Positions 631 to 23,201 are shown, numbered from the stretch's first letter. The stretch is DNA of 23,264 nucleotides from an uncultured bacterium (GCA_964534375.1 CAZHPN010000085.1:1-23264), one strand, 5' to 3'. Made by a program: numbers and translations. Notes: generated from the letters alone by a model not told the origin.

Positions 631-672
631 CGGCCTCAGAAACGGAAACTGCCGTTTCCGTTTCTGAGGCCG
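631..672. repeat. Perfect 19-bp inverted repeat with 4-nt loop
   Basis: CGGCCTCAGAAACGGAAAC-tgcc-GTTTCCGTTTCTGAGGCCG; no U-tract on either side. Confidence 0.9.
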
Positions 673-712
673 CTGTCCTCGGGGCGTCAAATGCGCGATA
701 CCCCCACCCGGT

Positions 713-997
713 TTAAGCTTCCTGCATCAGTTCGTGAAGACCTTGGTTGCAATTACACTGCCGGAGGGCGTCCACGGCGTCGCCGCACGCAGCGTCTTCG
801 CCGCCCTTGGCCACGTGGAAATTCCGTCCAGTTTCGGAATCCATTCGACCGGCAAATTCCATTACCGTCGCGATGGCCGAGCCCACCGATTGTTCCGACG
901 GCCAAGGCGCGGCAACGACGAGATACCGGTTAAAAGGAATTGGCATACCGTAAGCGTCGCGCTCGTCACCATAAAACGTCACCATAACTCTTTTCAT
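713..997 (-). CDS. Hypothetical protein, 94 aa (MKRVMVTFYG...)
   Basis: AGGAGG upstream of ATG 997 (ORF track extends to 1030); no family recognised. Confidence 0.6.
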   Translation of the reverse strand: MKRVMVTFYGDERDAYGMPIPFNRYLVVAAPWPSEQSVGSAIATVMEFAGRMDSETGRNFHVAKGGEDAACGDAVDALRQCNCNQGLHELMQEA

Positions 998-1325
998 TTG
1001 GCACCGCCTCCTGAGAGCTGAAGCCCTCATGTCTTTGCAACCAATATGGTCGCCGTTTTGTCAACATGTTCTTGCGTTACACCCTGGCGCGCAGTACTTA
1101 ATCATTCCGTCCGTGTCCGTCAACCGAAGAGTCCTAGTCACGACACTTTGGGGCTCAATCCGTCTCATGACTATGCCAAAAAATGCTAGCCGCAGACCGG
1201 GAGCGCCGCGTGTGGGTCTGAACGATTATTCCTGTACATTCAACGCATTACGTTCTGATAAAACCGGAGTTGCGGTGTTCCGGCCGAGTGGGCCAAATCA
1301 AACGAGAATCATTCTCGCCGGAGCG

Positions 1326-1387
1326 GCGAGTTATCCAGGCCGCAGGGGCTGGCCGCGACGGGCCGCAGTCGTGATATTAAAGGTAAA
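1326..1387 (+). repeat. 62-bp diverged direct repeat, copy 2; probable promoter region of the AlkZ-like gene
   Basis: 53/62 identity to 215-276; ends 25 bp before GTG 1413; contains CTGGCC-N18-GATATT. Confidence 0.85.
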
Positions 1388-1412
1388 GCAACCGGAAAAA
1401 TTTGGAGGCGTC

Positions 1413-2513
1413 GTGCCGAACACAACCCTGACCCTTCGCGACCTCAATCGCGCGACGCTGGCGCGGCAGATGTTGCTCGCGCGCGAGAAGACCACGGCGC
1501 TTTCGGCTATCGAGCGGTTGGCCGGCATGCAGGCGCAATTGCCGCGACCGCCGTTCGTCGGGCTTTGGACGCGGGTGGCGGATTTCCGGCGCGAAGACCT
1601 CGCGCAGTTGCTGCGCGGGCGCAAGGTCGTGCGCGCCACGCTGATGCGCGCGACGCTGCACCTGATGAGCGCGAAAGATTACGCGAGCCTGCGGCCGGCC
1701 ATCCAGCCTGCGCTCACCCGCGTGTGGCGGCAGATCCTGCGCCAGCGCGCCCACGCCCTCGACCCTGACGCCCTGGCCGCGGCGGCGCGCGAGTTTCTCG
1801 CCGAAGGGCCGCGGACATTTCAGGAAATCCGGGCCCATCTCGCCGCGACGTTTCCCAAAGGGGACGAGCGCGCGATGGGCTACATCGTGCGGACGCACCT
1901 GCCGCTGGTGCAGGTCCCGACCGAAGCCGAATGGGCGTTTCCGAACATTGCGGATTTCACGCCGGCGGATGCCTGGCTGGGAAAACGGCGCGGCGCGGGC
2001 GATGAAAATCCGCAGGCGTTGATTTTGCGCTACCTTTCCGCGTTCGGCCCGGCGACGCCGGGCGACGCGCAAACGTGGTCCGGCCTCGCGGGCCTGCGCG
2101 ACGCGTTCGAATCGCTGCGGCCGAAATTGCGCACGTTTCGCGACGAACGCGGCCGCGAGTTGTTCGACCTGCCAAACGCGCCGCGCCCCGGGGGCGACGC
2201 CCCCGCGCCCGTGCGGTTTCTGCCGGATTACGACAACCTGCTTTTGGCGCACGCCGACCGGACGCGGGTCGTCGCCAACGCGCATCGGGCGCCGGTTTTC
2301 CTGGCCGCCGGGCGCATCATGGCGACGTTTCTAGTGAACGGCTTCGTGGCGGGCACTTGGAAAATCGCGCGGACCAAACGCGCCGCAACGCTGAAGATCG
2401 CGCCCTTTGCGCCGCTGCCGAAAAGCGCACGCGCCGAACTCGTGGAGGAGGCGGAAACGCTGGTGCGCTTCGTCGAGGCGGACGCCGAAAAACTCGAGAT
2501 CGCCTTTGCGTAG
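1413..2513 (+). CDS. AlkZ-family (HTH_42, winged-helix) DNA glycosylase / interstrand-crosslink repair protein
   Basis: LNRATLARQMLLAR start, GMQAQ (QxQ catalytic motif, AlkZ-like rather than YcaQ QxD), MRATLHL, RYLSAFGPAT, LPDYDNLLL, VAGTW. GGAGG SD before GTG 1413; the ORF-track extension to 1029 runs through intergenic DNA. Confidence 0.88.
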   Translation: MPNTTLTLRDLNRATLARQMLLAREKTTALSAIERLAGMQAQLPRPPFVGLWTRVADFRREDLAQLLRGRKVVRATLMRATLHLMSAKDYASLRPAIQPALTRVWRQILRQRAHALDPDALAAAAREFLAEGPRTFQEIRAHLAATFPKGDERAMGYIVRTHLPLVQVPTEAEWAFPNIADFTPADAWLGKRRGAGDENPQALILRYLSAFGPATPGDAQTWSGLAGLRDAFESLRPKLRTFRDERGRELFDLPNAPRPGGDAPAPVRFLPDYDNLLLAHADRTRVVANAHRAPVFLAAGRIMATFLVNGFVAGTWKIARTKRAATLKIAPFAPLPKSARAELVEEAETLVRFVEADAEKLEIAFA

Positions 2514-2660
2514 ATCGGTTGCGTGATTTTCAGCGAAACGCAGCGGATTTTTTGTCGCGAACCGGCTTCGCCTGGCTTCTTCGGTCGGGCGACGCAAAGG
2601 CCGCGAGGAAGGGCGTCGGTTCCGCCTATGCGCCCTTTTCGGATTCGCTTGACGCGTTCC

Positions 2661-2749
2661 GGGGGCGCTGCCCCAGGCTATGATAGCGTGGGCCGTTGGC
2701 CTTTTTGACGATGCGCAGGAACAGCCGGCACAGCCGAGGGCGGCTGCGC
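2661..2749. repeat. Two stacked short REP-like hairpin elements
   Basis: GGGGC-GCT-GCCCC...GGCC-GTT-GGCC (2662-2701) and CAGCCG-AGGG-CGGCTG (2731-2746) between convergent genes. Confidence 0.55.
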
Positions 2750-2756
2750 CACACCT

Positions 2757-2847
2757 AGAAACTAGGGACGGTCACCGGTTTTTTTTGGCCGCCATCAACG
2801 ACGACCGACAAACACTGATGACAGTCCCGGGGTTCTTTCTAGTTTCT
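2757..2847. repeat. Imperfect palindromic REP-like element at the downstream border of the pAgo island
   Basis: GAAACTAGGGACGGTCACCGGTTTTT ... GACGACCGA ... AAACACTGATGACAGTCCC, plus outer IR AGAAACTAG/CTAGTTTCT; clearly related to 5797-5871. Confidence 0.75.
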
Positions 2848-2867
2848 TTCATGATCGGCATCCGCCG

Positions 2868-4313
2868 TTATATATAATATTTAAAATTGGTTAACGGTTC
2901 GCGGTCTTGTGGTATTTCGCGCATTATTTCTCCAATCCGTCGCGAAAACAATAATGTGATCGGCAGAAGACCGCCCAAACGCGCCGAATTCCAATTCATT
3001 TTGGTCAGTATCAGTATTTCGCGAAGCAGCGTGTCGCGTGATGTGTCACCACCAATATGATCAGCGATTTGAAGCGCAGACGGCACGTGAACGCTATGAA
3101 ATTGCTTTAAGTCTGCCAGATAGCCGGTCGTATATAAGAAATCAATATCGCCGACAGAGAAATGCGTGCCGCGCAACGGTGGATATTTGTTCGCCGAAAA
3201 CAGTCGTACATTGCTCTGAGCCTCGAGCGCCATCAAATCGTACCGGCTGACTTTGTGCTTCAACGCCTCTTCGAACCCAATCTTTTCCTCCGGCCAATAA
3301 CGTGAACTTTTGTGCACGACAACTCGTTGGGGGTCCTGGCGCATTTCATCCCTATATTTACTTAGAACGAGATCGACCAATCGGGATGCATCTTCCCTTC
3401 CCAAATGAGGCGCTTTTGATCCCTCTTTGTCGGAATCCCACAAAAAATCGTGGCCGCGTAATACAAGGCCGTCCCCGTGTTCGTCGAACGCCTGCACTAG
3501 ACTCGTTTGAACCCTCGGATCGGAGGAGCCCAATGCCCTGAAGAATCCGATGCCAATGTAGCAAGTGCCAGGGATTAGGCCGTTTGGCCCCCAAGGCAAT
3601 CCGCCTGCTTTGTAGTACAGGCCGGTAAAAAAATCCCACGCGATTTCTGATGGATAATCTTTTCGAACCACTTTTGTGGGGTCGAACTGCTCCATCGTTT
3701 CGTTTCTAAGGATTTGCGTTGGCATCCTGAATTTCATGGCTCTTGCTTTGTACGCCCTGCGCAAATTTCTGAAAACAGAGCCAAGCACGCGGTCCTTATA
3801 CTCAACTACAGCACAATCCTTGAGGAGCTCGTTGGGCAGCGCACACACGATATATTCCGGCGGTCGATCCTTCGTAGAAAGTAACTCTGTTTTTGCCTCC
3901 AACAGATCGAGGGCCGCCGCAAATTTTGCCGCCGGCCCCCTTGTATGTATGACTTGATCTATTTCCGTATGACTCAATTGTGCCAGCCAGTGCTCGTCGA
4001 ATAGCAATTCAGAAAAAAAACCTCTGTCGGGCATAAAACCCGGAAATTCTGGACGTTCCGCGTTTGAGGACGAAATCCCCCTGGCGCACGTCTCCAACCA
4101 GTCCTTGCATTTTTCAATTGATTCCGCCGAACCTATCAGGCCCACGCGCACTGTCGCTGGATGGTTATCTGCCGGTTCAAACGATTTGGGGCCGAACCGC
4201 GAAATACCGAGTTTGGGATCGACATGTTCACCACTGTCGCCGAAAAGCAGCAGTGGCTCTTCGATATAACCGCACCTCAATTGGGCGTCCGTGGAATTCC
4301 TGCGCGGCCGCAT
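2868..4313 (-). CDS. Short prokaryotic Argonaute (MID-PIWI), catalytically inactive
   Basis: 481 aa. N-terminal IEEPLLLFG..HVDPKLGI..FGP; MID motif LRRAYKARAM..MPTQIL and LYYKAGGLPW; PIWI CYIGIGFF and VVVHKSS (both lacking the catalytic Asp), YPPLRGT, LYTTG, LTKMNWNS, PITLLFSRRIGEI; C-terminal FKYYI as in short pAgos. No PAZ or N domain. Confidence 0.95.
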   Translation of the reverse strand: MRPRRNSTDAQLRCGYIEEPLLLFGDSGEHVDPKLGISRFGPKSFEPADNHPATVRVGLIGSAESIEKCKDWLETCARGISSSNAERPEFPGFMPDRGFFSELLFDEHWLAQLSHTEIDQVIHTRGPAAKFAAALDLLEAKTELLSTKDRPPEYIVCALPNELLKDCAVVEYKDRVLGSVFRNLRRAYKARAMKFRMPTQILRNETMEQFDPTKVVRKDYPSEIAWDFFTGLYYKAGGLPWGPNGLIPGTCYIGIGFFRALGSSDPRVQTSLVQAFDEHGDGLVLRGHDFLWDSDKEGSKAPHLGREDASRLVDLVLSKYRDEMRQDPQRVVVHKSSRYWPEEKIGFEEALKHKVSRYDLMALEAQSNVRLFSANKYPPLRGTHFSVGDIDFLYTTGYLADLKQFHSVHVPSALQIADHIGGDTSRDTLLREILILTKMNWNSARLGGLLPITLLFSRRIGEIMREIPQDREPLTNFKYYI

Positions 4314-5669
4314 TTATGCCTCGTCCTCAAATTCAAATACTTCATCGTCGCCGTCATCGTCTTCTTCAATATCGCGTAATTCCGCCAAACTGAAAAGGTC
4401 GTCTTCGTAAGAGATATTTCTAAACGGCTTTTGGTGCTCTGGCGGAATTCCTGGCCAGACGATTTTAGCACTAAGCATAGTGGCCGACACGATGACTTGT
4501 TGTCGATCCGGTCCGAAATGAAAAATAATTCGCGGGCGACTTCCGCACAAAAAATCGCGCCAAAAATTAAACTCTGCCAACAAATCATAGTTGAACATCC
4601 GGGATGTTTTTCGAGTCACTTTTCGGCCTACGAGCGAATGATCAAGGGGGGTCTCGCCATCCTTCGTGATATGCATTTCGGGCCGAATTCCGAGGCACCA
4701 ATCCCGAGCCGATATTCGTAAAAAAACAAGATGGACCGCTCGATGGTACCAAAAATTCTTGGGAATATTTGTTTTTTTCGTAATAGGCTGCCATACAACT
4801 TGACGCCTGGCTGTTTCTTGGTTCATCGGCCGGTAAGAAATTTCCAAAGGCTGGCCCTTTTCGCAAGGAATGAAGTAATACCGATTATGTTCCCGGTCCC
4901 ACCGAAGGGCTTTTCTGCCCGTCAGTTTATTCAATGATCGTTTCAGGAGAGCCGCCAACCAACGCGATCGATCCGGGTCATCGACCCACTCTGAAAGTCC
5001 TTCCCGGCGAACTATCCGCCCGTGTGCCAAACGTCGAAAAGGGCCTTTGCTGAGTTTCATGTCTTGAAAGCAGTAAATATGTTTCCCGCGAACGATAAAG
5101 GGAGCCATCTCATGTTTAGTACCGTCTAGAAGGATTTCCTTTTGTACGTCTTTTTCCTGCACGTCATTTAGATCACACGCGACGTTGTATATGTAACGCG
5201 GCATCGTCTGAACGGGCAGTAACGTGCTGTAAATCATTTCAGACACATAAGGGGTTTTCGGTGGACGAGCGTGCTTCGACACCCGGTCCTTGTCCGTAGC
5301 TTTTTCAATAAACCTTTCGTGGTCGCATTTCATTTGCCGAAGCCGTTCCACGGTAAAATAATGAACTTGTTTGTCGACGCGATGATGGTCCTCTTCGCAA
5401 AGAAGAATAAGATTGTCGTATTTGTCGCGTTCTGAAGGTGGCAGGGGATAGCCACCCCGTGGGCCATCCGGTCTCTGCGCGACTATGTGCGCAACCTCAG
5501 AAACGGTTCCCCCACCATCCACCGCGGTTTCAGGGAAGGTTAACAGTTTGTTGCAATCGGGATAGGCGCACCGATTTCCCGAACGCTGAAACAGCATTTT
5601 TTGGTCGTTATATGAGATCGTCATTCGCGGAGCATCCTCGTCATCCTCCCGGGAGCCAGGACTCTTCAT
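4314..5669 (-). CDS. HNH endonuclease-APAZ fusion, partner/effector of the short pAgo
   Basis: N-terminal SGNRCAYPDC...AHIVA...GPRG...NLILLCEEDHHRVD (Zn-binding HNH like Cap5-type HNH domains). C-terminal ~300 aa has APAZ-like motifs (EMIYSTLLPV..MP..IY, RPEMHITKDG, RMFN..L....FW..FL). Its TAA directly abuts the pAgo ATG. Alternative start ATG 5624 (MTISY). Confidence 0.88.
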   Translation of the reverse strand: MKSPGSREDDEDAPRMTISYNDQKMLFQRSGNRCAYPDCNKLLTFPETAVDGGGTVSEVAHIVAQRPDGPRGGYPLPPSERDKYDNLILLCEEDHHRVDKQVHYFTVERLRQMKCDHERFIEKATDKDRVSKHARPPKTPYVSEMIYSTLLPVQTMPRYIYNVACDLNDVQEKDVQKEILLDGTKHEMAPFIVRGKHIYCFQDMKLSKGPFRRLAHGRIVRREGLSEWVDDPDRSRWLAALLKRSLNKLTGRKALRWDREHNRYYFIPCEKGQPLEISYRPMNQETARRQVVWQPITKKTNIPKNFWYHRAVHLVFLRISARDWCLGIRPEMHITKDGETPLDHSLVGRKVTRKTSRMFNYDLLAEFNFWRDFLCGSRPRIIFHFGPDRQQVIVSATMLSAKIVWPGIPPEHQKPFRNISYEDDLFSLAELRDIEEDDDGDDEVFEFEDEA

Positions 5670-5717
5670 CGCTTCGAAGAAACTTACGGCCTGACGAACA
5701 AACGCCTCTCGTTGATT

Positions 5718-5746
5718 AGCATATACGAATCGGACGGGTTTCGCAA
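5718..5746 (-). promoter_or_regulatory. Putative sigma70 promoter of the HNH-APAZ/pAgo operon
   Basis: Minus strand TTGCGA (5746-5741) - 17 nt - TATGCT (5723-5718), about 50 nt upstream of ATG 5669. Confidence 0.6.
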
Positions 5747-5796
5747 ATGGACAGAGTTGTCAACCGCAAAGGTATCTGCGCATTGGCCCCTACGGG

Positions 5797-5871
5797 GAAA
5801 CCAGGGACAGCCACCAGTTTTTGCCGGTCTTGTTCGAGGACGACCGAAAAACTGGTTACTATCCCTGGTTC
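5797..5871. repeat. Imperfect palindromic REP-like element at the upstream border of the pAgo island
   Basis: 24-bp arms AACCAGGGACAGCCACCAGTTTTT (5799-5822) and AAAAACTGGTTACTATCCCTGGTT (5847-5870), 21/24 complementary. Loop shares GACGACCGA with the 2757-2847 element. Confidence 0.8.
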
Positions 5872-5917
5872 ACGGTGTCCTCTGTGGCTCGGTGGTTCAA
5901 TCCGCCGCCGCCACAAC

Positions 5918-6619
5918 CTAACTGCAAAAGCCGTTCGGGTCGCACGTCATGCCGTTGCCGCAATCCCAACCGAGGCGGCAATCGGGCAAACAGACCATCA
6001 GCACCGGATTGCACAGGTAGCCGGCGCGGCAACTGGCCGGGCCGTTGCAATCGGGCAGGCAGAGCGAGGTGGCGCCGAGTTGCAGGCAGGTGAAGTCGGC
6101 CGGGCACGCGCCGCAGATCTGCGAGCACATCCCGTTTTCCCAGGCGAGGCCGTTCGCGGTTTGTTGCTGCGGCAAGCAATAATTCGACAGGCAATCGGCG
6201 TTCAGCGTGCACGGGTCGCCCAGGTTTTGCGTCGGCGGCGGCACGCATGCGCCGTCGGCGCCGCACACGAAGCCGCTGCCGCAATTCCAGCCGCGGCGGC
6301 AATCCGGCAGGCACGCTTGCAGCGTCGGATCGCAGATATAGCCCGCGCGGCAGTTGCTGTTCGCGGCGCAGCCGGCGAGGCAAAAGGATTGGCCGCCGAG
6401 CGACGCGCACACCGCGCCGCCGCCGCAGCCGCCGGAGCAGCTTTTCGTGCAGTAGCCGCCCGGCCAGCCGGTCGACTGGCCCCACTGTTCGGCCTGCAGG
6501 CACAGATCCGAGCGGCATTGCTCTTTTTCGGTGCAGGCGGCGCCGAGCGGCCGCGAACCAGGGCCGGAGCACGCCGTCAGCGCCGCAAGCAGGCACGCCA
6601 GCGGGAGCAGCCGTCGCAT
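5918..6619 (-). CDS. Cys-rich lipoprotein with two tandem 16-Cys modules
   Basis: Signal peptide with lipobox LTAC. Two ~105-aa repeats each with 16 Cys (CRAGY.C.P....CLPDCR.GW.CG.G..C...G.C). Last gene of the operon. Confidence 0.85.
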   Translation of the reverse strand: MRRLLPLACLLAALTACSGPGSRPLGAACTEKEQCRSDLCLQAEQWGQSTGWPGGYCTKSCSGGCGGGAVCASLGGQSFCLAGCAANSNCRAGYICDPTLQACLPDCRRGWNCGSGFVCGADGACVPPPTQNLGDPCTLNADCLSNYCLPQQQTANGLAWENGMCSQICGACPADFTCLQLGATSLCLPDCNGPASCRAGYLCNPVLMVCLPDCRLGWDCGNGMTCDPNGFCS

Positions 6620-6623
6620 CGCG

Positions 6624-7262
6624 TTACAGCCCTTTCAAGCCGGCGAGCGCATTGGCGTTCTTGCGGTGCACCGCCAAGACTTTCTTGAACATGTCGCGCG
6701 CCTCCGCCGACCGGCCTTGTTTGAGATATGTCCACCCGAGGCCGAGCATCATTTCGAGCTCACTGGGGTAATTTTTCAGCGTCGCCTGATATTGCTGTTC
6801 GGCGAGCTTGTATTTGCCTTCCATGTAATAAACATAGGCGAGGCGGCTGCCGGCGAGGTAGTTGTCCGGCGCGCGGGCTGCGAGCTTGCGCCCCAGCGTT
6901 TCGGCGTCGTCCCACTTTTGCGCGGCCATCAGCGGCAGCAGCAACCCCAATTGGGCCTCGATCGCGCCGGGCGCCAGCGTCATCGCCCGCGTGTAATACA
7001 CGATCGAATCGGCGAAAGTGCCCTTGCAATAGCACAGCCAGCCGAGGCGGTAATTCGCCACGTAGTTCGCCGGATCGAGGCGCAGGATCGCCGTCACGTC
7101 GGCGATCGCCTGCTCGATCGTGCCCGCTTGCTCCTGCAGGTACGAAGACTCGAACAGGGCCGCGATTTCCTCGGCGTGACTCTGCGCGCGGGCGGTTCCG
7201 GTCGTCGCCAGCGCGACGGCGGCGCACAAAAACAAGGTCGCAAATCCGTGGTGTCGCCTCAT
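6624..7262 (-). CDS. Secreted TPR protein
   Basis: Signal peptide ending ARA; TPR-like helices (YRLGWL.Y.KG, YLAGSRLAYVYYMEGKY, LGLGWTYLKQG); GGAGG SD. Confidence 0.88.
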   Translation of the reverse strand: MRRHHGFATLFLCAAVALATTGTARAQSHAEEIAALFESSYLQEQAGTIEQAIADVTAILRLDPANYVANYRLGWLCYCKGTFADSIVYYTRAMTLAPGAIEAQLGLLLPLMAAQKWDDAETLGRKLAARAPDNYLAGSRLAYVYYMEGKYKLAEQQYQATLKNYPSELEMMLGLGWTYLKQGRSAEARDMFKKVLAVHRKNANALAGLKGL

Positions 7263-7272
7263 GAACGCCTCC

Positions 7273-8706
7273 TCAAAAGTTCGCCTGCAAACCGAGCGTG
7301 CCGCCCAGCAGCGAGAAATTGTGTTGCAGGTATTCCTGCTGGATGCCGAACGATTGTTGAAAATCGAGCGTGATTTGCAAATATCGGCCCGCGCTGACGG
7401 CCAGGCCCGCGTCGTATCCGCCCGCGAACAGGTCGTCGCTGCTCCAGATCGACACGCCGCTGTCGTCCACCGCGTGCCGCCGCCGGCCGTAAAAACCGGA
7501 GGCGGACAACGTCAACGGGCCGACGACCTGCCAGCGCACGTAAACATGCCCGGACGCCAGCGTCTCCTCGCGGACCGGTCCCGGGACGGGGCCGTCCTGT
7601 TGGTGGGCGCCGACGGCGATGATTTCCGGCCCGACGCCGATGACCGCGCGGCGCGCGATGCGAAAAACGGCCTCCGCATCGGCCTGAAAAACCGCGAACG
7701 ACGGATAAAAGCTGGCCGCGACGGCGCCCGCGGCGCCGGCGGGCGCGCCGTCATAGCCCGCGCGCAACGCCACGGTTTTGGTCGTGTTGACGTCGGCTTC
7801 ATTGCTGATCAGCCACGCGCCGCTGCCGCCGAGCCACCACCGGCCCGGGTGATATTCGACGCCGACGACCGGCTCCCATTGCCAGAAATTATCGACAGTG
7901 TAGTTCAGCACCGAGCGGGAGTACGACACGCCCGCCCACGGGCTCACGCCGACCGGAAAGGTTACGGCGCCGGTCGCGGTGATGTTTTCGACGTCGCGCA
8001 AATCCCACGGATGGGTGTACTGGAGATACGTCGCCGACGCGGTCACGGCGCCGGTCGTTTTCGGCGCCGGCGCCATCGCCAGGCATTCGTCGACGCGAGG
8101 GTCGGCGCCCAGTTTCGCGCGCGCCTGCTCGCAAAGCCCGCGCCCTTCCGCAACCGCGCCTCGCCGAATGCGCGTGAAGCCCAGGCCCAGCAGCATTTCC
8201 GGTTCGTCCGGCCGAAGCTGCAGCGCGCGGCGATAGAGCGTCTCGGCCGCGGCGTACGAGCCTTGCATGTAAACGGCGAACGCGTCGCGCGCCGTCGCCC
8301 AGTAGTTGTCCGGATCGGCCGCCAGCGCCTTTTCGCCCGCGGCTTGCGCGGCGCGCCAATCCTGCCGCTGCAACGCGACGAGTTGCAGGCCGAGCCACGG
8401 GTCCGCCGAGCCGTCGATCATCTGCGCGGCCCGCCGATAATTCGCCTCGGCGGCGGCGAGATCGCCGCACTTGAAATTGAGCCAGCCGAGCCGCAGCCGG
8501 ACCGCATAAACGTCCGCGCGCGCCAGAATTTGCTCGGCCACGGCGCGGGCCTCGGCGAACTGCCCGGCCTGCGCCAGCGCGTCGCACTTCGTGTACAGCG
8601 CGTCGAGCGTTGCGGACGGCGCCGCGGGCTCGGCGGCCGCGGCGGTTCCCCACGCCAGAAAAACGGCGGCCAGTTGCGCCAACGTTATCCATCGCCGTCG
8701 CGTCAT
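7273..8706 (-). CDS. TPR protein with a C-terminal predicted outer-membrane beta-barrel
   Basis: Start at 8706 gives an ATGA overlap with the upstream gene. Signal peptide, ~6 TPRs similar to those of the downstream protein, then alternating beta-strand pattern ending GGTLGLQANF (C-terminal Phe). Confidence 0.78.
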   Translation of the reverse strand: MTRRRWITLAQLAAVFLAWGTAAAAEPAAPSATLDALYTKCDALAQAGQFAEARAVAEQILARADVYAVRLRLGWLNFKCGDLAAAEANYRRAAQMIDGSADPWLGLQLVALQRQDWRAAQAAGEKALAADPDNYWATARDAFAVYMQGSYAAAETLYRRALQLRPDEPEMLLGLGFTRIRRGAVAEGRGLCEQARAKLGADPRVDECLAMAPAPKTTGAVTASATYLQYTHPWDLRDVENITATGAVTFPVGVSPWAGVSYSRSVLNYTVDNFWQWEPVVGVEYHPGRWWLGGSGAWLISNEADVNTTKTVALRAGYDGAPAGAAGAVAASFYPSFAVFQADAEAVFRIARRAVIGVGPEIIAVGAHQQDGPVPGPVREETLASGHVYVRWQVVGPLTLSASGFYGRRRHAVDDSGVSIWSSDDLFAGGYDAGLAVSAGRYLQITLDFQQSFGIQQEYLQHNFSLLGGTLGLQANF

Positions 8707-10865
8707 GACGCCGCCTCCGCCGTCAATATTTCCCGTTCGCCGCGCCACGCGCGCATCGCGGTCGGCCCGCGCCCGGGCGCCAGGTCGATTTCGATGCGAT
8801 CCGGCAGATCGATGCGCAAGGCCGCGCGCGAACGGCTGCGCACCTGCGTCGCGACGCGGATGCCGCCGGACCAGGGGACGATGGCGCTGGCAGTTTCGAT
8901 TTTGACGATCTCACCGAAGGGCAAGCATAGCTCATGAACGAAACGCGTGACCAGCGGCAAAAACGCATTCGCCGCCGGGCCGTCGTTCCAGCGGATTTGC
9001 GGTTCGGCGACGAACGGCGCGCGCGGCAGGCCGAGATAGAACAGCCCCAGCAGGCGCTTCGCCGGGCCCTGATAATCGAGCAGCGTCACGTAGCTGCCGT
9101 CGGCGAAAAACGGCACGGCCGCGCCGCCGTCGTCCGCGACCAAACGGCGGCCGCCCAGCGGGTCGATTTCGCTCGTCCAAGCCTCTTGCAGGCGTTGGCC
9201 GTCGCGCGTTCCCGACCAGCGCCACTCGCGGCCCGGGGCGAGCGTCAGCGCGCGCCGCACTTCCTCGTCCACCTCGAGCCGGGCGACGATCGCGCCCTGC
9301 GCCGGCGCACCGTGCGTGACGTAACGGCGGCCGGCCGCTTCGCCGGCCACGTAATGCAGAAACTCGCCGTAGATCGTCGGCGCGCCGATCTCGGGCGACG
9401 CCTGCAATTGAAAATGCAGGTGCGGCGTCGGCGAGCGGCCCGAATTGCCAACCCGGCCCAGCAACTGCCCCGCCACGACCGCGTCGCCCTCCTTGACGAC
9501 GATCGAGCCTTTCTGCAGATGGCAAAGCGCGGAGTAGATCGCGCCCGCGTGCCACAGCACGACAAGGTTGCCCCAGTTGTTGGCGATGTTCACCTCGCCG
9601 AGCGGGTTGTCCTCGAAGTGATTGACGACGCGTACGACCTTGGCGTCGCCCGGCGCGAATACCGGCGCCTGAAACGCGTAATAGTCGGTGAGCGCCGCGC
9701 CGTCGCCGCGATGCGCGCGCCCCTCGTCGTCGCCGATGTCGAAATCCCACGCCTGCGCCCATGGGCCGCGGTGCGTCTGGTCGCCGCCAGGCCCCTGCGC
9801 GATGCGCCAGCGGCCGGACACCGGCAGGTAGACCACCGGGACCGCCGGATCGGGATAGCGCCGTTCGCGGTGCAGCAGCCGGCTCAAGTTCTTCTCGGGC
9901 GAATCGATTTCGCCATAGATCAATTGCAAACGACCGCGCCCGGCGCGGATCATCACCGCGAATAACATTAAATATGTCGCGACGATGAACGGCGCCGCCA
10001 GCACGGGCAGTTCATAGGGCCGCAGCAAGCCGGAAAACGCGGCGGACAGCACCGCGGCCAGCGCGCCGCCGCACAGGGCGAAGAGCAGCGACGCCGGGCG
10101 CAAGGCGATCCACACGCCGCCGACGGCGATCGCGGTGAGGATGAAGTTGAGGCCGACGAATTGCGCCCGCAGATCCAGCGCGTTGCCGCCGAGCGCCGCG
10201 TACATGCCGTAGCCGCCGGCGAACCCGATGATGGAAAGCAGCGTCGCCCAGCGCGAAAACCAGAGCAGCCCGAGGAAAACGAGAATGCCGGACGCCACGC
10301 TCAACTGGTAAAACGCCGCGCCGAGCGAACGCAGATACAACTCGACGAGGCCCGGCAGCGCGCCGCCGCCGAGGTCGGCTTGCAGCACGGGCTCGAGCGT
10401 TTTTTCGACGCCGGCAAAACCGGGCGCCGCCAGCCACGCGGCCCAGGCGGCGAGCAGGAAGGGCAGGCTGAGCACCGGCAGGCCGAGATAACGCTGGAAC
10501 AAATGGCGCAGCAGCGCCGCCGCCAGCACGCCGAAAAAGACGATCGCCGCGAGAAAGAGCGCCGCTTGCCACGTCAACGACAAGCGCCAGCCGAGCGCCA
10601 GGCCGATCAACAGGCCGTTGAAGCCGTAGTAGCCGTCGGCGATGTGCTCTTTCGGCCGGCCGAGCAGCCGCGCGAAGAGGTCGGCGAAGGCGAGACCGAG
10701 CAGACCCAGCAGGCCGTGCCGCGGCACGACGAACGTCGCCGCGGCGAAGAGCAGCCCGGCGACGAGGCTCTGCGAAAAGTAGATTTGCGCATACGTGCGC
10801 AGCCACGCGGCCAGCGCCGCCTTGGACGAGCCGATAAAGCGGAGTGTGGCGGGCTCAGACGCCAT
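8703..10865 (-). CDS. Urea-transporter-family membrane domain fused to an M23-family peptidase domain and an unknown C-terminal domain
   Basis: Two UT-like repeats (AQIYFSQS..GYYGFNG..LSLPF; GAAFYQ..GLNF..LAAPF) with ~10 hydrophobic segments, then M23 motifs THRG....WDF, PVFAPGDAKV, WGNLVVL.H, LCHL, G.VGNSGRS..PHLHFQ. Confidence 0.85.
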   Translation of the reverse strand: MASEPATLRFIGSSKAALAAWLRTYAQIYFSQSLVAGLLFAAATFVVPRHGLLGLLGLAFADLFARLLGRPKEHIADGYYGFNGLLIGLALGWRLSLTWQAALFLAAIVFFGVLAAALLRHLFQRYLGLPVLSLPFLLAAWAAWLAAPGFAGVEKTLEPVLQADLGGGALPGLVELYLRSLGAAFYQLSVASGILVFLGLLWFSRWATLLSIIGFAGGYGMYAALGGNALDLRAQFVGLNFILTAIAVGGVWIALRPASLLFALCGGALAAVLSAAFSGLLRPYELPVLAAPFIVATYLMLFAVMIRAGRGRLQLIYGEIDSPEKNLSRLLHRERRYPDPAVPVVYLPVSGRWRIAQGPGGDQTHRGPWAQAWDFDIGDDEGRAHRGDGAALTDYYAFQAPVFAPGDAKVVRVVNHFEDNPLGEVNIANNWGNLVVLWHAGAIYSALCHLQKGSIVVKEGDAVVAGQLLGRVGNSGRSPTPHLHFQLQASPEIGAPTIYGEFLHYVAGEAAGRRYVTHGAPAQGAIVARLEVDEEVRRALTLAPGREWRWSGTRDGQRLQEAWTSEIDPLGGRRLVADDGGAAVPFFADGSYVTLLDYQGPAKRLLGLFYLGLPRAPFVAEPQIRWNDGPAANAFLPLVTRFVHELCLPFGEIVKIETASAIVPWSGGIRVATQVRSRSRAALRIDLPDRIEIDLAPGRGPTAMRAWRGEREILTAEAAS

Positions 10866-18292: not shown

Positions 18293-21200
18293 TTATTGCG
18301 GCTGCAGCGCCTCTTCGGCGCGGGCGAGCCGCTGGCCGTCGTTCGGATAGGCCGCCTTGACCTGCTGATAAATCGTCGTCGCCTTGTCGGTTTTGCCGAG
18401 CTGGCGATAGGTCTCGATCAGCAGGATGTCGCCGTCGTAGACCTTGTTCGGGTCGTTGAACGAGCCAATCTCGCGTTCCAACAATGCGACGGCGGCGTCG
18501 CCGCGCTTCGTTTTGCACATCAGCCGCGCCTGGCGAATGATGATATCCGCCCGGTCGCTGCCGGGCCGCGACCAGATCGTCAGCATTTTGGCGTACAGCT
18601 TCTCTTCGTCGGCGAACCGCGACTGCTCGTCGAGCATGTCGCTCCAGAAGACGCCGGCGTTGAACGCCTGCCACGGTCCGCGCGGCTCGTCGAGCAACCC
18701 GCGGTACAACTCCTCGGCCTTCGCTTTCTCTTCCGTGCGGCGATAGGTGTTGGCCAACTCCAGCCGCGCCGACATGCCGACGTCCGTATGGCCGTTCAGC
18801 GACGCCGCGTCCTTGAGCAGCGGCAACGCCTTGTCGGGCAGGCCCTTGGCGACGTAGGCGCGGCCGACGATGAGTTTGAAAGCCGCCGTGCGTTCGGCGT
18901 CCGCGGCGAATTCCTTCACGGCGGTCGCGTAGAGTTCTTCCAGAGCCGGCAGATTGCCCTGCTCGCGATCGAGATCGAGCAGCATGCGATAGCCCTCGAA
19001 ACGCCGGCCGCGGTCGGCGAATTTCGGCAGTTCGCGCGCCAGGAGCGCGGCGGCGAGGTCGGTCTTTTTTTGCCGTTGCAGCAGCGCGATCTGGCGCAGC
19101 ACGATGTCGGCGCGTTCGTCGTCCTTGGCCGCGTGCTCTTTCGCGAGTTCGGCGAGCAACGCTTCGGCTTCGGCGAATTTCTGCTGGTCGCCGAGCAGAT
19201 CGGCAAGGGACAAGCCGGCGGCGAGCGTTTCCCAGGTGTCCTTTTTCGCGGCCATCACCTCGCGAAACATTTTTTCGGCGGCGGCGCGATCGCCTTCGCG
19301 GCGCATTTCGTTGGCCAGGTTCAGCTTGGCCTCCAGGACGACGGGGGCGTTCGGATAATGGGCGATCAGTTCGCGGTAGACGGCGGCGGCGCGGTCGCCC
19401 TGGCCCTGATCGACGTGCATCTGCGCGAGCGACATTTTCGCCGCCACGAGCCGTTCGTCGTCAGCGCCGATCGTCTTGGCCAGTTGGCCGAACGCCTCTT
19501 CCGCCGCCTTCGGTTCGCCCTTGCCGGCGTACAACTCCATGAGCAGGGCGTTGGCGTCGGTCAACCGCTTGGTGTCGAGGAATTTTGGCATCTCGGCGCG
19601 CAGCAGGGCGATGGCGTCGTCGACGCGGTTTTCCTTTTGATACAGGCGCGAGCGTTGGATCACGATGTCGGACCGCTCTTCCCGCCGGTTGCCCCAGCGC
19701 TTGATCATGGCGTCGAGTTGCTTGTCGGCCTCGGCCGTTTTGCCTTCGGTGGCCAGGATATCGGCGACGGTCGCCGCGGCGGCGAACACCTGCCAGGAAT
19801 CCTTGGTGCTCTCGGACAACTCGCGGAAAATTTTCTCGGCCTTCGGCAGATCGCCGGCGCGCCGGAGCATGCCGCCGAGGTCGGCCTTGGCCTGCAGCGC
19901 CGCTTCGGAATCGGGGTACTGGGCGATGACTTCGCGGAAGGTCGCCCCGGCCTTGTCGTTCTGGCCCAGCCGATCGTAGGCCTTGCCGAGGACGACCTTG
20001 GCCTGCGCGAGCCGCGCGGGGGCCGCGCCAGCGGACTTCAATGTCGCCTTGACCGTCTCCTCCGCCGCCTTCATGTCGCCGGCGGCCGCGTAGAGTTCGA
20101 TGAGCAGGAACTGGGCGTCGACGGCCTTGGCGGGGTCGGTCAACGTCGGCAGTTCCTTTTTCATCAGGGCGACGCCCTCGGCCGGTTTGCCGACGCGCTC
20201 CAACAAAGCCGCCTGATGAAAGACGATCTCGGCGCGTTCATCCGGCTTGGATTCCCACTTCTTGCGCATGCCGGCCAGGATCTGCTGCGCTTCGTCATAC
20301 GCCTGCCGGTCGATGAGAATATCGGTCAGCGACATCCCCGCCTGGAACGGCTGCCAACCGTCGATCGAGCCCTCGAGCAGTTCACGATAGAGTTTTTCGG
20401 CTTTGCCCTGATTGCCCGTCTGCCGATATTGGTCGGCCAGGTTCAACTTGGCCTGGCTCTCGGCGTCGGCGTTGTGCGATTGCGCCAGTATCTCGCGGTA
20501 CAACGTTTCCGCTTTGTCGTTCAAACCCTTGGTCGAATAGAACTGCGCCATTTCCACTTTCGTGCGCGACATTTTCTCGGCGTCCTGACCGAAATGTTCC
20601 TGGATGCGGCGGTAGCATTCTTCGGCCGCCGGGAGGTTGTCGGTGATCCGGTAGAGATGCAGGAACTGGAAATCCGCGTCGTATTTCTTGTTCGGATCCT
20701 TCAATTGCGGCGCGAGTTCCTGCAGACGGGCGATCGCCTCCTGGTTTTTCCCTTCTTCCTGCAGCAGGCGGGCCCGGCGCAGCAGCACGTCGGCGCGATC
20801 GACGTCCGGCTCGCGCCAGCGGGCTTCCATGTCGTCGAGCTGCTTTTCGGCGTCGGCGAATTTCTTTTGCTCCGAGTAGGATTCGACGAGCGTCAGACCG
20901 GCGGCCAGCGTCTGCCAACCGGCGCCTTTGCCCTCGTACAACTCGCGGTAGATCTGCTCGGCCTTGTCGCGCGACCCGGCGCGGCGCAACGCCGACGCCA
21001 GATCGAGCTTCGCCGTCGCCACCTGGTCCGGATTCGGCGAGTGCGCGATGACCTCGCGGTACAGCGCTAGCGCCTTGTCGCCGAAGCCTTTGCCCGCGTA
21101 CATCCGCCCCATCGCCGTTTTGGCGCCGGCGACGCGCTCGGGATCGGCGGCGTATTTCTTCAACACGTCGTTGTAAATGGCTTCGGCGGGCGGGAGGTTG

Positions 21201-23104
21201 CCCGCGGCGGCGTAGAGCGACAGCAGCGACATGCTGCCTTCGTAATATTTGTTGCGGTCTTTGAATCCGGGGAGCGCGCCGGCGAGCATGGCCAGGGCCT
21301 TGTCGGGTTTGCCCATGGCTTCGAGCAGGCGGGCCTGCCGCATCACGAGTTCGTCGCGCATTTCCTCGGTGGTCGCGCGCCGGGTCATGTCGGCGATCAG
21401 GTCTTCGGTTTCGCGGAAGCGCCCTTGCCCCTGGTACAGTTCGACAAGCTTGATGCCGGCCGGCCCGGAAATGGTCAGGTCTTTCGTCCCGGTGTAGACC
21501 GACTTGTACCGCTGCTCCGCTTTGTCGAGGTCGCCGCGTTTGCGCAACGCGTTGGCGATGGCCATTTCGGCGTCGACGCGCATCCAGAGGCTGGTGGCGC
21601 CGGCGTCGTAGTCCTTGAGCCGCGCCAGCGTCTTTTCGGCGTCGTCGATGCGTTCCAGGGCGCACTGCACGGCGATCGCCTCGGCGAGCGCGCGATTGCC
21701 GATGCTCAATTCCGACTGGAATTTGTCGAAGACGGCCAGGTACTTGGCGAGCGCCTCTTCGTTGCGGCCTTCTTTTTTCAGCAGTTCCGCGAGGCCAAAA
21801 TCGGCGCTGGCCTCGGCATCCGGATTGTCGACCTCCGTTTTGCGGATCTTTTCGTAGAGCGCGCGGGCTTTGTCGGGTTCCCCCATTTCGGCGTAGAGCT
21901 TGGCCATGGCTTCGATGGCGAACACGGCCTCAGGGTTGCCCTCGTAGGTCGTGGCGATCGCCTCAAACTGCGCGAGCGCCTTTTCGTATTGCCGGCGCTG
22001 GGCGTACACGCCGGCGATGGCCAGCTTGGCGGCGGCGACGCGGTTGGGGTCCGCGGCGTACTTTTGCACGATCACCTGATAGAGCTTGATGCCGGCGTCG
22101 TATTCGCCGAGTTTGACCGTTTTTTCCGCCTGCTTCTGCAGCACGTCGTACGACCAGTGTTGCGGACCGGCGAAAAAACGGTATGTGAAAAAAGAGATCG
22201 CGGCGATGGCGACCAGCACGACGGCCTGCGCGACATGGCTGCTGCGCAAGAGCCGCAGGAACCGGCGGATCAGGAACATGTCGACGAGCGCGCCCTGGCT
22301 CTTGTAGCCCCGCAGCAGTTCCTCCGACACGCCGGAGATGGACTTGAGCGAGGCTTTTTTCAGAACGGCGTCCTGAAAATTGATGTTCTCCTGGTCCGAG
22401 CCGTTGAAGACCGCGCCCGAGAGGTCAGCCCCGGTGAAATTGACGTTTTCGAGCACGCCGCTGAAAAATTGCGCGTTGACGAGGCCCGCGCGGGAGAAAT
22501 CGACGTCTTTGAGTTCGGCCAGCGAGAAATCCACGCCTTGCGCATTCAACCCCGCCGCTTGCACGCGCGCCAAACGGCATTCCTGGAAGACGCCGCCCCG
22601 CAGATCGGCGCCGGTCAGGTCGATGTCCAGCAAATCGGCGTCGGCGGCTTTGGTTCCGACGCACTTCGCCCGAATCAGTTTGGCCCCGGAAAGCCGCGCC
22701 CGATGAAATAGGGCTTTGGACACATCGGCGTCGGTCAAATCGGCGTCCTGAAACACCGCCTTCCCGAAGTCGGCCTGCAACGCCTTGACGCCGGCGAGCT
22801 TGGCGCCAGTGAAGTTGGCCTCTTTGGCCTTCGCCTGGTCGAGTTTCGCCCCGGTGAGATCGGCCCCGGTGAAGTTGGCTTCGCGCAAGTCGGCGTCGGA
22901 CAGATCGGCGCCCGAGAGGTCGGCGCCGGACAAATCGGCCTTGCGCAAATTGGCGCCGCCGGCCGCGATGTTGCGGAGTTTGGCGCCGCGCAGATCCGCC
23001 TTGGGCAGCTTGATGTTCGCGAGGTTGGCGCCGACGAGTCCGCCCGTCTTGGCCTTGGCGAACACCTCTTCCGGCGTTAACGAAATGCCCGATTTTTCGG
23101 CCAT
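18293..23104 (-). CDS. Large membrane-anchored protein: pentapeptide repeats, single TM helix, long TPR-like solenoid (1603 aa)
   Basis: A(D/N)LxG pentapeptide repeats in the first ~260 aa, hydrophobic VAQAVVLVAIAAISFFTYRFF, then TPR-like helices. GGAGG SD before ATG 23104; ATG 23173 lies inside the putative -10 box. Confidence 0.9.
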   Translation of the reverse strand: MAEKSGISLTPEEVFAKAKTGGLVGANLANIKLPKADLRGAKLRNIAAGGANLRKADLSGADLSGADLSDADLREANFTGADLTGAKLDQAKAKEANFTGAKLAGVKALQADFGKAVFQDADLTDADVSKALFHRARLSGAKLIRAKCVGTKAADADLLDIDLTGADLRGGVFQECRLARVQAAGLNAQGVDFSLAELKDVDFSRAGLVNAQFFSGVLENVNFTGADLSGAVFNGSDQENINFQDAVLKKASLKSISGVSEELLRGYKSQGALVDMFLIRRFLRLLRSSHVAQAVVLVAIAAISFFTYRFFAGPQHWSYDVLQKQAEKTVKLGEYDAGIKLYQVIVQKYAADPNRVAAAKLAIAGVYAQRRQYEKALAQFEAIATTYEGNPEAVFAIEAMAKLYAEMGEPDKARALYEKIRKTEVDNPDAEASADFGLAELLKKEGRNEEALAKYLAVFDKFQSELSIGNRALAEAIAVQCALERIDDAEKTLARLKDYDAGATSLWMRVDAEMAIANALRKRGDLDKAEQRYKSVYTGTKDLTISGPAGIKLVELYQGQGRFRETEDLIADMTRRATTEEMRDELVMRQARLLEAMGKPDKALAMLAGALPGFKDRNKYYEGSMSLLSLYAAAGNLPPAEAIYNDVLKKYAADPERVAGAKTAMGRMYAGKGFGDKALALYREVIAHSPNPDQVATAKLDLASALRRAGSRDKAEQIYRELYEGKGAGWQTLAAGLTLVESYSEQKKFADAEKQLDDMEARWREPDVDRADVLLRRARLLQEEGKNQEAIARLQELAPQLKDPNKKYDADFQFLHLYRITDNLPAAEECYRRIQEHFGQDAEKMSRTKVEMAQFYSTKGLNDKAETLYREILAQSHNADAESQAKLNLADQYRQTGNQGKAEKLYRELLEGSIDGWQPFQAGMSLTDILIDRQAYDEAQQILAGMRKKWESKPDERAEIVFHQAALLERVGKPAEGVALMKKELPTLTDPAKAVDAQFLLIELYAAAGDMKAAEETVKATLKSAGAAPARLAQAKVVLGKAYDRLGQNDKAGATFREVIAQYPDSEAALQAKADLGGMLRRAGDLPKAEKIFRELSESTKDSWQVFAAAATVADILATEGKTAEADKQLDAMIKRWGNRREERSDIVIQRSRLYQKENRVDDAIALLRAEMPKFLDTKRLTDANALLMELYAGKGEPKAAEEAFGQLAKTIGADDERLVAAKMSLAQMHVDQGQGDRAAAVYRELIAHYPNAPVVLEAKLNLANEMRREGDRAAAEKMFREVMAAKKDTWETLAAGLSLADLLGDQQKFAEAEALLAELAKEHAAKDDERADIVLRQIALLQRQKKTDLAAALLARELPKFADRGRRFEGYRMLLDLDREQGNLPALEELYATAVKEFAADAERTAAFKLIVGRAYVAKGLPDKALPLLKDAASLNGHTDVGMSARLELANTYRRTEEKAKAEELYRGLLDEPRGPWQAFNAGVFWSDMLDEQSRFADEEKLYAKMLTIWSRPGSDRADIIIRQARLMCKTKRGDAAVALLEREIGSFNDPNKVYDGDILLIETYRQLGKTDKATTIYQQVKAAYPNDGQRLARAEEALQPQ

Positions 23105-23171
23105 GTTGCCTCCGCTTCCCAGTTGCGCCTCTCGTCGAAAAAGAAGGCGGGAATCTAGTGCACCGCTGGTC

Positions 23172-23201
23172 ATTATTATGCGGCCCGTTTCCCGCCGTCA
23201 A
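23172..23201 (-). promoter_or_regulatory. Putative sigma70 promoter of the pentapeptide/TPR gene
   Basis: Minus strand TTGACG (23201-23196) followed by CATAATAAT, giving AATAAT at 18-nt spacing. Confidence 0.5.

Follow-up and report, generated by a model that had tools for sequence, protein, structure and literature searches.

The closest described relatives of the locus analysed here are the SPARHA systems, which pair a short prokaryotic Argonaute (pAgo) with an HNH-APAZ nuclease effector. Kanevskaya et al. (preprint April 2025; Nat Commun, November 2025; PMC12738770) describe SPARHA as an anti-plasmid and anti-phage system in which RNA guides direct the recognition of DNA targets, filaments assemble, DNA is degraded collaterally in the presence of Mn2+ and abortive infection results, and later reviews have cited it. 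Structure 9OM4, obtained by cryo-electron microscopy (cryo-EM), is presented in the same paper as the activated SPARHA filament of Acidithiobacillus caldus (AcaSPARHA). Nuclease-APAZ classes including HNH are already listed in the abstract of an earlier article (PMC10810196), and in a literature text search the term 'HNH-APAZ' was found only in the SPARHA preprint and the Nat Commun paper. Here we analyse a two-gene locus within a 23,264-nucleotide stretch of DNA from an uncultured bacterium (GCA_964534375.1, CAZHPN010000085.1:1-23264; this whole stretch is called the window). We consider the locus, with a probability of roughly 0.9, to be an intact SPARHA whose two genes reached a high-GC, Planctomycetota-like bacterium together as a cassette through horizontal transfer.

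Other defence systems share parts of this design. SPARDA, with a DREN-APAZ (DUF4365-APAZ) effector (structures 9jsb, 9qbl and 9qbq), shares with the locus a short pAgo, here probably of the S2B type, and an APAZ domain, and is likewise described as a collateral nuclease activated through filaments (PMC12738770). Its effector is a DREN nuclease of the PD-(D/E)XK type, whereas that of the locus is an HNH nuclease. SPARTA (TIR-APAZ; 8fex, 8ifk) resembles SPARHA in its pAgo/APAZ heterodimer, its RNA-guided DNA sensing and its oligomerisation upon activation, but differs in output: SPARTA assembles a tetramer whose TIR NADase depletes NAD+, whereas SPARHA is a filament-forming DNase. Outside SPARHA, the closest solved HNH fold belongs to Cap5, the HNH-SAVED protein of the cyclic oligonucleotide-based antiphage signalling system (CBASS), and SPARHA activation has been modelled on the Cap5 HNH tetramer by comparison with 8FMF (PMC12738770). 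Cap5 senses cyclic nucleotides through its SAVED domain, without guide-dependent recognition, whereas the locus carries an Argonaute and an APAZ domain.

Architecture of the gene pair

The pair is encoded on the minus strand by two open reading frames (ORFs) of the same direction, at 4314..5669 (451 aa) and 2868..4313 (481 aa). The HNH-APAZ gene comes first and the pAgo gene second, and the two ORFs abut exactly: the HNH-APAZ stop codon TAA occupies 4316-4314 and the pAgo start codon ATG 4313-4311, with GAGGACGAGG directly 5′ of the latter. These coordinates agree with the original prediction, made from the sequence alone, which had placed two abutting genes at a TAA-ATG junction at 4316-4311. 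Both genes have full-length open frames, showing that the pair is intact. The same architecture, an HNH-APAZ gene followed by a short MID-PIWI pAgo, is found in the SPARHAs of A. caldus, Mlla and Lhe.

The pAgo (2868..4313, minus strand, 481 aa; stop codon TAA at 2870-2868) consists of MID and PIWI domains only, without N or PAZ, and matches the PADLOC model pAgo_I over residues 14-481 (5.6e-139). Searched against all PDB chains, it matched 9OM4 chain B ('prokaryotic argonaute MID-PIWI family protein') best, with an E value of 5.1e-152 and 510 bits, and aligned along this 471-aa chain (residues 9-481 on chain positions 5-471). Ranked by score alone, the SPARHA pAgo at 510 bits is followed by those of SPARDA (196 and 177 bits; E 1e-56 to 6e-51) and SPARTA (~150-158 bits, over the C-terminal part only).

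The partner protein likewise found its best match among all PDB chains in 9OM4, here in chain A ('HNH endonuclease'; E 2.8e-101, 343 bits), with ORF residues 19-449 aligned to chain positions 4-429. Its N-terminal part is an HNH nuclease domain of the Cap5 kind (5289..5624, minus strand; residues ~1-112 of the likely 436-aa form), containing C19, C24, E43, H46, N71, C76, D79, H80 and D84. Over ORF residues ~15-130, PADLOC assigned the models PDC-M68A (1.2e-32), SAVED_HNH (4.1e-27) and CBASS endonuclease effector (5.4e-27). After 9OM4, the next-best PDB matches of this part are the Cap5-like SAVED-HNH proteins 8ysq, 7rwk and 7rwm (E 7e-11 to 4.8e-6, residues ~13-131).

Behind the nuclease lies an APAZ domain (4377..5288, minus strand), the analogue of the N-L1-L2 region that pairs with a short pAgo. 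The original prediction had expected an APAZ domain in this C-terminal region, and the PADLOC models Aga_REase-PNTD1-PNTD2 (2.8e-31, ORF residues 116-389) and Aga_SIR2-PNTD1-PNTD2 (4.9e-29, ORF residues 144-429), together with the full-length match to 9OM4_A, bear this out. The PNTD1-PNTD2 part of the PADLOC TIR-APAZ model also matches the protein, and the DREN-APAZ chain 9jsb_D of SPARDA aligns over residues 178-385 at E 7.2e-5. F344 of the HNH-APAZ protein aligns with Y340 of the Aca APAZ domain. Taken with the pAgo_I match, the Cap5-like HNH and APAZ models and the full-length 9OM4 matches uphold the pairing of a short pAgo with an HNH-APAZ effector that had been proposed, and support the view that the pair is a guide-activated system that would degrade DNA collaterally.

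The HNH-APAZ gene most likely starts at ATG 5624, which is M16 of the ORF, rather than at ATG 5669, which opens the longest ORF of 451 aa. We favour the downstream codon, giving a gene at 4314..5624 on the minus strand and a protein of 436 aa, because the gene call in the protein collection is also 436 aa long, because the N-terminus falls at the M16 column in 27 of 31 aligned homologues (the other four have longer N-termini), and because a GAGGA motif stands 10 nt upstream of ATG 5624, whereas ATG 5669 lacks such a site. Single residues of the HNH-APAZ protein are therefore numbered in the 436-aa form beginning at M16; adding 15 gives the ORF numbering.

The protein ends in an acidic tail of 20 residues, 65% of them Asp or Glu (4317..4376, minus strand). 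Among 120 homologues, the tail has a median length of 25 aa and a median Asp plus Glu fraction of 0.54. In SPARTA, the acidic tail of the APAZ protein is reported to fill the nucleic-acid cleft at rest and to be autoinhibitory, a likeness to the tail seen here, and APAZ tails of the S2 clade are described as acidic too (PMC10899771). A text search of the main text of the SPARHA paper (PMC12738770) found no mention of an acidic C-terminal tail.

Catalytic, guide-binding and sensor residues

The HNH active site is conserved almost throughout. H46, N71 and H80 align with H46, N71 and H80 of AcaSPARHA in a HMMER alignment to 9OM4_A, and their columns hold His in 120 of 120 homologues, Asn in 120 of 120 and His in 119 of 120, respectively. 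C19 and C24 are each Cys in 119/120, while C76 and D84 are invariant (120/120). AcaSPARHA carrying N71A/H80A and MllaSPARHA carrying H53A are reported to be devoid of nuclease activity (PMC12738770). E43, three residues N-terminal of the conserved H46, is Glu in 100 of the 120 homologues, and the 'bridge' residue E50 of MllaSPARHA stands likewise three residues ahead of H53 (PMC12738770). The Cys/His HNH motif that the partner was predicted to retain is thus present, with C19, C24, H46, N71, C76, H80 and D84 invariant or nearly so; the exception, D79, is weighed below.

In the pAgo, the predicted MID pocket for the guide 5′-phosphate (R185 and K189; 3747..3761, minus strand) aligns with AcaAgo R180 and K184 and is invariant in 24 relatives. 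I201 in turn aligns with Aca I196; together, Aca R180, K184 and I196 are described as anchoring the guide 5′-phosphate (PMC12738770). D219 occupies the position of Aca D212, reported to read the guide base U2 (PMC12738770), and K376-Y377 align with Aca R367-Y368. The interface loop reads DEHGDG and is invariant in the family; the Aca equivalent is DEQGNG, and Mlla has R273 and D275.

The sensor loop SL1 (residues 297-304; 3402..3425, minus strand), with its invariant P302-H303-L304, aligns with AcaAgo residues 290-296. Deletion of these Aca residues is reported to inactivate SPARHA, and the discussion of that paper equates SL1 with the glutamate finger of active Argonautes (PMC12738770). This equivalence agrees with our mapping of the PIWI domain, for which a profile of 24 relatives was aligned by hhalign to Thermus thermophilus Argonaute (TtAgo, plasmid pTT27; probability 74.6%, E 2.7e-5, 221 columns) and in which TtAgo E512 falls on P302. 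We take the TtAgo catalytic tetrad to be D478, E512, D546 and D660, each located in the translated TtAgo sequence. The positions of D478, E512 and D546 hold F258, P302 and S336; D660 lies beyond the aligned stretch, and R458 was placed there by eye only, from the motif P-x-x-L-x-x-x-D/R. The loss of the PIWI catalytic residues that had been claimed earlier therefore stands at the three aligned positions, and the PIWI site is predicted to be dead, so that the Argonaute would be unable to slice.

The locus thus has in common with AcaSPARHA the HNH His/Asn/His residues, the Arg and Lys of the 5′-phosphate pocket and the U2-contacting Asp, and with the characterised SPARHAs generally the bridge Glu, the interface loop, SL1 and the acidic tail. 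It differs from them in belonging to a separate lineage, in having Asp in place of His at the presumed zinc ligand, and in its host, a high-GC, Planctomycetota-like genome. Its first-base (A1) contacts are Ala, Val and Asn, compared with Gly, Arg and Asp in AcaSPARHA. In the search with the HNH-APAZ protein, AcaSPARHA scores below all 120 listed relatives (343 versus at least 443 bits).

The mechanism worked out for the characterised SPARHAs (PMC12738770) can be carried over to this locus by homology. The HNH-APAZ protein and the pAgo would join in a stable heterodimer, with APAZ completing the Argonaute fold and the pAgo restraining the HNH domain in an inactive state. The pAgo would load 5′-phosphorylated guide RNAs of 17-21 nt derived from abundant invader transcripts. 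Pairing of a guide with invader DNA over more than 10 bp would displace SL1, extend the connector loop and expose the PIWI interface loops, whereupon heterodimers would polymerise into helical filaments. The freed HNH domains would then dimerise through their N-terminal helices, yielding tetramers with double active sites that, with Mn2+, would cut double-stranded DNA indiscriminately and leave 1-nt 3′ overhangs. Cellular DNA would be degraded and the infected cell killed or arrested, amounting to abortive infection.

Distribution, composition and genomic setting

In word-filtered protein searches of 5.8 billion proteins, 4622 HNH-APAZ and 8000 pAgo candidates were scored. Related cluster representatives numbered 783 for HNH-APAZ and 1021 for the pAgo, and the best non-self identity among the clustered relatives was 58% and 66%, respectively. 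A genome scan with one genome per species returned 132 stretches with relatives, of which 80 loci were kept; these come from Cyanobacteria, Chloroflexota, Planctomycetota, Acidobacteriota, Nitrospira, Pseudomonadota, Verrucomicrobiota and others. By tblastn with both proteins, 76 of the 80 loci have a same-strand HNH-APAZ homologue upstream of their pAgo, and in 72 of these 76 it lies no more than 125 nt from the inferred pAgo start; the HNH-APAZ alignments stop ~22 residues short of the C-terminus, within the acidic tail. The four others comprise two loci cut by a contig end (L008, L061), one partial match (L046) and one with a 1.9-kb gap (L037).

In that last locus (644-5054 of an Anaerolineae assembly), the HNH-APAZ ORF stops early at 349 aa and an opposite-strand DDE transposase gene (1820-3232; DDE_5, E 2.6e-14) lies between HNH-APAZ and pAgo, which suggests that an insertion sequence has broken up this SPARHA. 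HNH-APAZ went unmatched in four loci. One of them (L067) lacks upstream sequence, and in the other three (L039, L053, L081) only a C-terminal portion of the pAgo is present (query from ~102, 238 and 287, respectively); these three may be decayed copies or assembly breaks. Among 93 plasmid records, all below 60% identity, the best pAgo was 34% identical, with SMEK or DUF4365 proteins as partners, and a search of phage records with the HNH-APAZ protein gave no match.

The composition of the pair sets it apart from its surroundings. In 500-nt windows, GC is 0.48-0.51 across 3001-5500, compared with 0.68-0.70 across 1501-2500 and 0.63-0.72 from 6001 onward; bases 2514-5917 form a low-GC island (0.509 versus 0.648 in the remainder of the window), as the original prediction had noticed. 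GC content at third codon positions (GC3) is 0.50 and 0.54 in the two genes and 0.82-0.91 in the host-like neighbours (1509-2513 and the genes from 5918 on). The host genome (6.30 Mb in 381 contigs, 94% completeness) holds this single pAgo. A sample of 40 related genomes, seven of the same family and nine of the same class, gave no match to the pAgo query; the genomes of two of the seven family members reach only 84% completeness. The host probably belongs to Planctomycetota: for a deoxyhypusine-synthase-like protein encoded nearby, the best relative shows 83% identity, and most of the named relatives are Phycisphaerae or other Planctomycetota assemblies, with a few carrying other labels.

The neighbouring genes are ordinary. 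An AlkZ-like glycosylase on the plus strand (domain ~1509-2513) converges on the pAgo. On the other side, the minus strand carries a gene at 5918-6619 with host-like GC3 (0.85) and no Pfam, NCBIfam or PADLOC match, two tetratricopeptide repeat (TPR) proteins (6624-7262 and 7273-8748, by TPR matches) and, further upstream, polyamine enzymes and a fusion of a urea transporter with an M23 peptidase. The window yielded no integrase, transposase or plasmid gene and no further defence gene, and searching its whole length for tRNAs and with Rfam gave no match. We considered a defence island and rejected it: the ten neighbouring ORFs match no PADLOC defence family apart from weak TPR-type matches, and with such neighbours the pair therefore lies outside any recognisable island of this kind. 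Because the composition is foreign, the pair is absent from the relatives searched and its neighbours are ordinary, these results indicate a small, horizontally acquired two-gene island.

Each side of the pair carries a hairpin of a dispersed repeat, in direct orientation. The right copy (5797..5872) has 24-nt arms at 5799-5822 and 5847-5870 (88% complementary) and folds as DNA at -23 kcal/mol, z -4.55 against shuffles. The left copy (2758..2848; motif match at 2760) is degenerate, ends 20 nt past the pAgo stop and folds weakly at -14 kcal/mol (z -1.92), a stability that 7 of 200 shuffles reach. The two are related by a 56-nt direct repeat, 2758-2813 / 5797-5852, of 73% identity. Allowing up to 3 mismatches, the 23-nt arm motif occurs in 40 copies on 23 of the 381 host contigs (among them C66, C76, C92, C94, C111, C265, C317 and C380 of G000), whereas the reversed genome, used as a control, has 0. 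Many of these copies are arranged as inverted pairs ~352 nt apart, in two subfamilies with interiors 80-93% and 76-88% identical. The dispersed repeat looks like a family of miniature inverted-repeat transposable elements (MITEs), with short derivatives, such as the right flanking copy, that hold little beyond the two terminal arms. No target-site duplication around the SPARHA pair was seen by eye. A reading of the hairpins as integron cassette attC sites was rejected: the copies are not in arrays, most pairs bound 350-nt elements whose interiors are 76-93% identical, and the outer bases of the hairpins do not fit the attC R-box consensus.

Further features of the window lie apart from the pair. 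The gene at 5918-6619 contains an internal 102-nt repeat (5930-6031 / 6251-6352, 74% identical), and a 1626-aa protein with N-terminal pentapeptide repeats and many TPR repeats, unrelated to the SPARHA pair, is encoded at 18293-23173 on the minus strand. We do not regard the plus-strand ORFs 5747-6688, 6531-7373 and 7261-8937 as genes, since their GC3 (0.57-0.72) falls short of the 0.82-0.85 of the minus-strand ORFs that they overlap, two of which have TPR matches. Positions 1-1500 have lower GC (0.54-0.57) and yielded no convincing gene; two small minus-strand ORFs there, 354-614 (86 aa) and 713-1030 (105 aa), went unmatched in Pfam, NCBIfam and PADLOC, and a hairpin with 22-nt arms (95% complementary) spans 628-675. 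The 494-aa ORF at 1029-2513, which contains the AlkZ-like domain, is probably too long at its 5′ end, with GC3 of 0.58 in 1029-1508 versus 0.84 in 1509-2513; a 66-nt direct repeat (211-276 / 1322-1387, 85% identical) has its second copy just 5′ of the probable true start.

Alternative readings and significance

The sequence itself shows the domain architecture and gene order, the conservation of catalytic and guide-binding residues, a seemingly dead PIWI site, foreign composition and patchy distribution. Several observations nevertheless weigh against an intact, working SPARHA. NCBIfam has no match to either protein, and Pfam only sub-threshold ones (HNH_2 at E 0.041 and HNH at E 0.14 in the partner, the unrelated DUF6511 at E 0.23 in the pAgo); because both libraries miss the two proteins, the assignment rests on PADLOC, the PDB and the homologue alignments. 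The hhalign probability behind the PIWI mapping is moderate, at 74.6%. At position 79, the HNH domain has Asp instead of the His found in 118 of 120 homologues, and A168, V169 and N183 of the pAgo stand at the Aca A1-contact positions G163, R164 and D178. A scan of 2400-6100 with the sigma-70 consensus found no promoter-like site on the minus strand, and the codon composition is far from that of the host, which could limit expression. Expression, heterodimer formation, guides, filaments and defence are in turn inferred for this locus.

The zinc site and the question of expression bear on whether the pair could be a SPARHA by descent that is silent or crippled in its host, either as an untranscribed recent arrival or with an HNH domain weakened by the His-to-Asp change. 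At the candidate zinc site, C19, C24 and C76 are present with D79 at the fourth position. These are putative ligands: because the HNH domain is unresolved in 9OM4, the assignment was read from the Fig. 5 legend of the SPARHA paper, in which Cys/His residues hold a Zn2+ ion in the HNH domain (PMC12738770). The His that homologues have at position 79 is presumed to be the fourth ligand. Asp is also able to bind zinc, and one further homologue (P0070) shares it, so the variant recurs; an effect of D79 on HNH stability or activity is nonetheless conceivable. As to transcription, the promoter of its own that the original prediction gave the pair was not recovered: the sigma-70 scan returned two sites in total, both on the plus strand, against 2.6 in shuffles, and the sole minus-strand terminator-like site falls within the HNH-APAZ gene. 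The sigma-70 consensus describes the promoters of the host's presumed phylum poorly, however, and a separate promoter is possible in the upstream non-coding gap at 5670..5917 (248 nt, minus strand), which holds the right hairpin repeat and reaches to the end of the next minus-strand gene at 5918, as judged by GC3. SPARHA decay does occur elsewhere, as in the transposase-bearing Anaerolineae locus and the three loci with only a pAgo C-terminal part. Here, by contrast, both frames are full-length and every other catalytic, guide-binding and interface residue is conserved, and we regard a silent or crippled copy, whose foreign GC3 and lack of a promoter-like site speak for it, as quite unlikely.

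The altered A1 contacts raise the separate prospect of SPARHA-like action with other inputs, namely DNA guides, a different 5′-end preference or RNA targets. In AcaSPARHA, G163, R164 and D178 contact guide base A1, and 5′-nucleotide preference already varies among the three characterised SPARHAs, as reported in PMC12738770; since the residues here differ from those of Aca, the preference for the first guide base may differ as well. Against a broader change of inputs, the 5′-phosphate pocket and the U2 contact D219 are conserved, and the three tested SPARHAs, SPARTA, SPARSA and SPARDA are all reported to use RNA guides and DNA targets (PMC12738770), which makes such a change unlikely. The flanking repeats allow two further readings. 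The pair may have been cargo between MITE-like repeats, captured or moved as a small non-autonomous cassette, with the Cys3-Asp zinc site and altered first-base pocket shifting guide and metal behaviour, a combination to which we give little credence. That the cassette is chiefly a selfish, addiction-like module between these repeats, serving its own upkeep and spread rather than host defence, is very improbable: the two direct-orientation hairpins, the foreign composition and the absence from relatives would fit it, but the window has no transposase, integrase or plasmid gene, the repeat's 40 copies on 23 contigs are mostly unlinked to cargo, no target-site duplication was seen by eye, and homologous systems are reported to guard against plasmids and phages (PMC12738770). 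An intact, horizontally acquired SPARHA thus remains the preferred reading.

SPARHA as a kind is already known, its mechanism having been worked out in 2025, and this locus is a further, ordinary copy. The doubt about novelty voiced in the original prediction, which mentioned SPARHA by name, was justified: biochemical work, in vivo assays and a cryo-EM structure of the system are already in print (PMC12738770). The locus opens no new question on Argonaute immunity. What it adds to an already large family is an intact and divergent SPARHA whose high-GC lineage has been poorly sampled, distinct from the characterised members in its sequence (at most 58% and 66% identity to any clustered relative), its zinc-site residue, its first-base contacts and its genomic setting. 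It offers a clean example of a foreign-composition defence cassette set between host repeats, and its His-to-Asp zinc-site change and altered first-base pocket make it a natural variant that could be used to probe HNH stability and guide selection.

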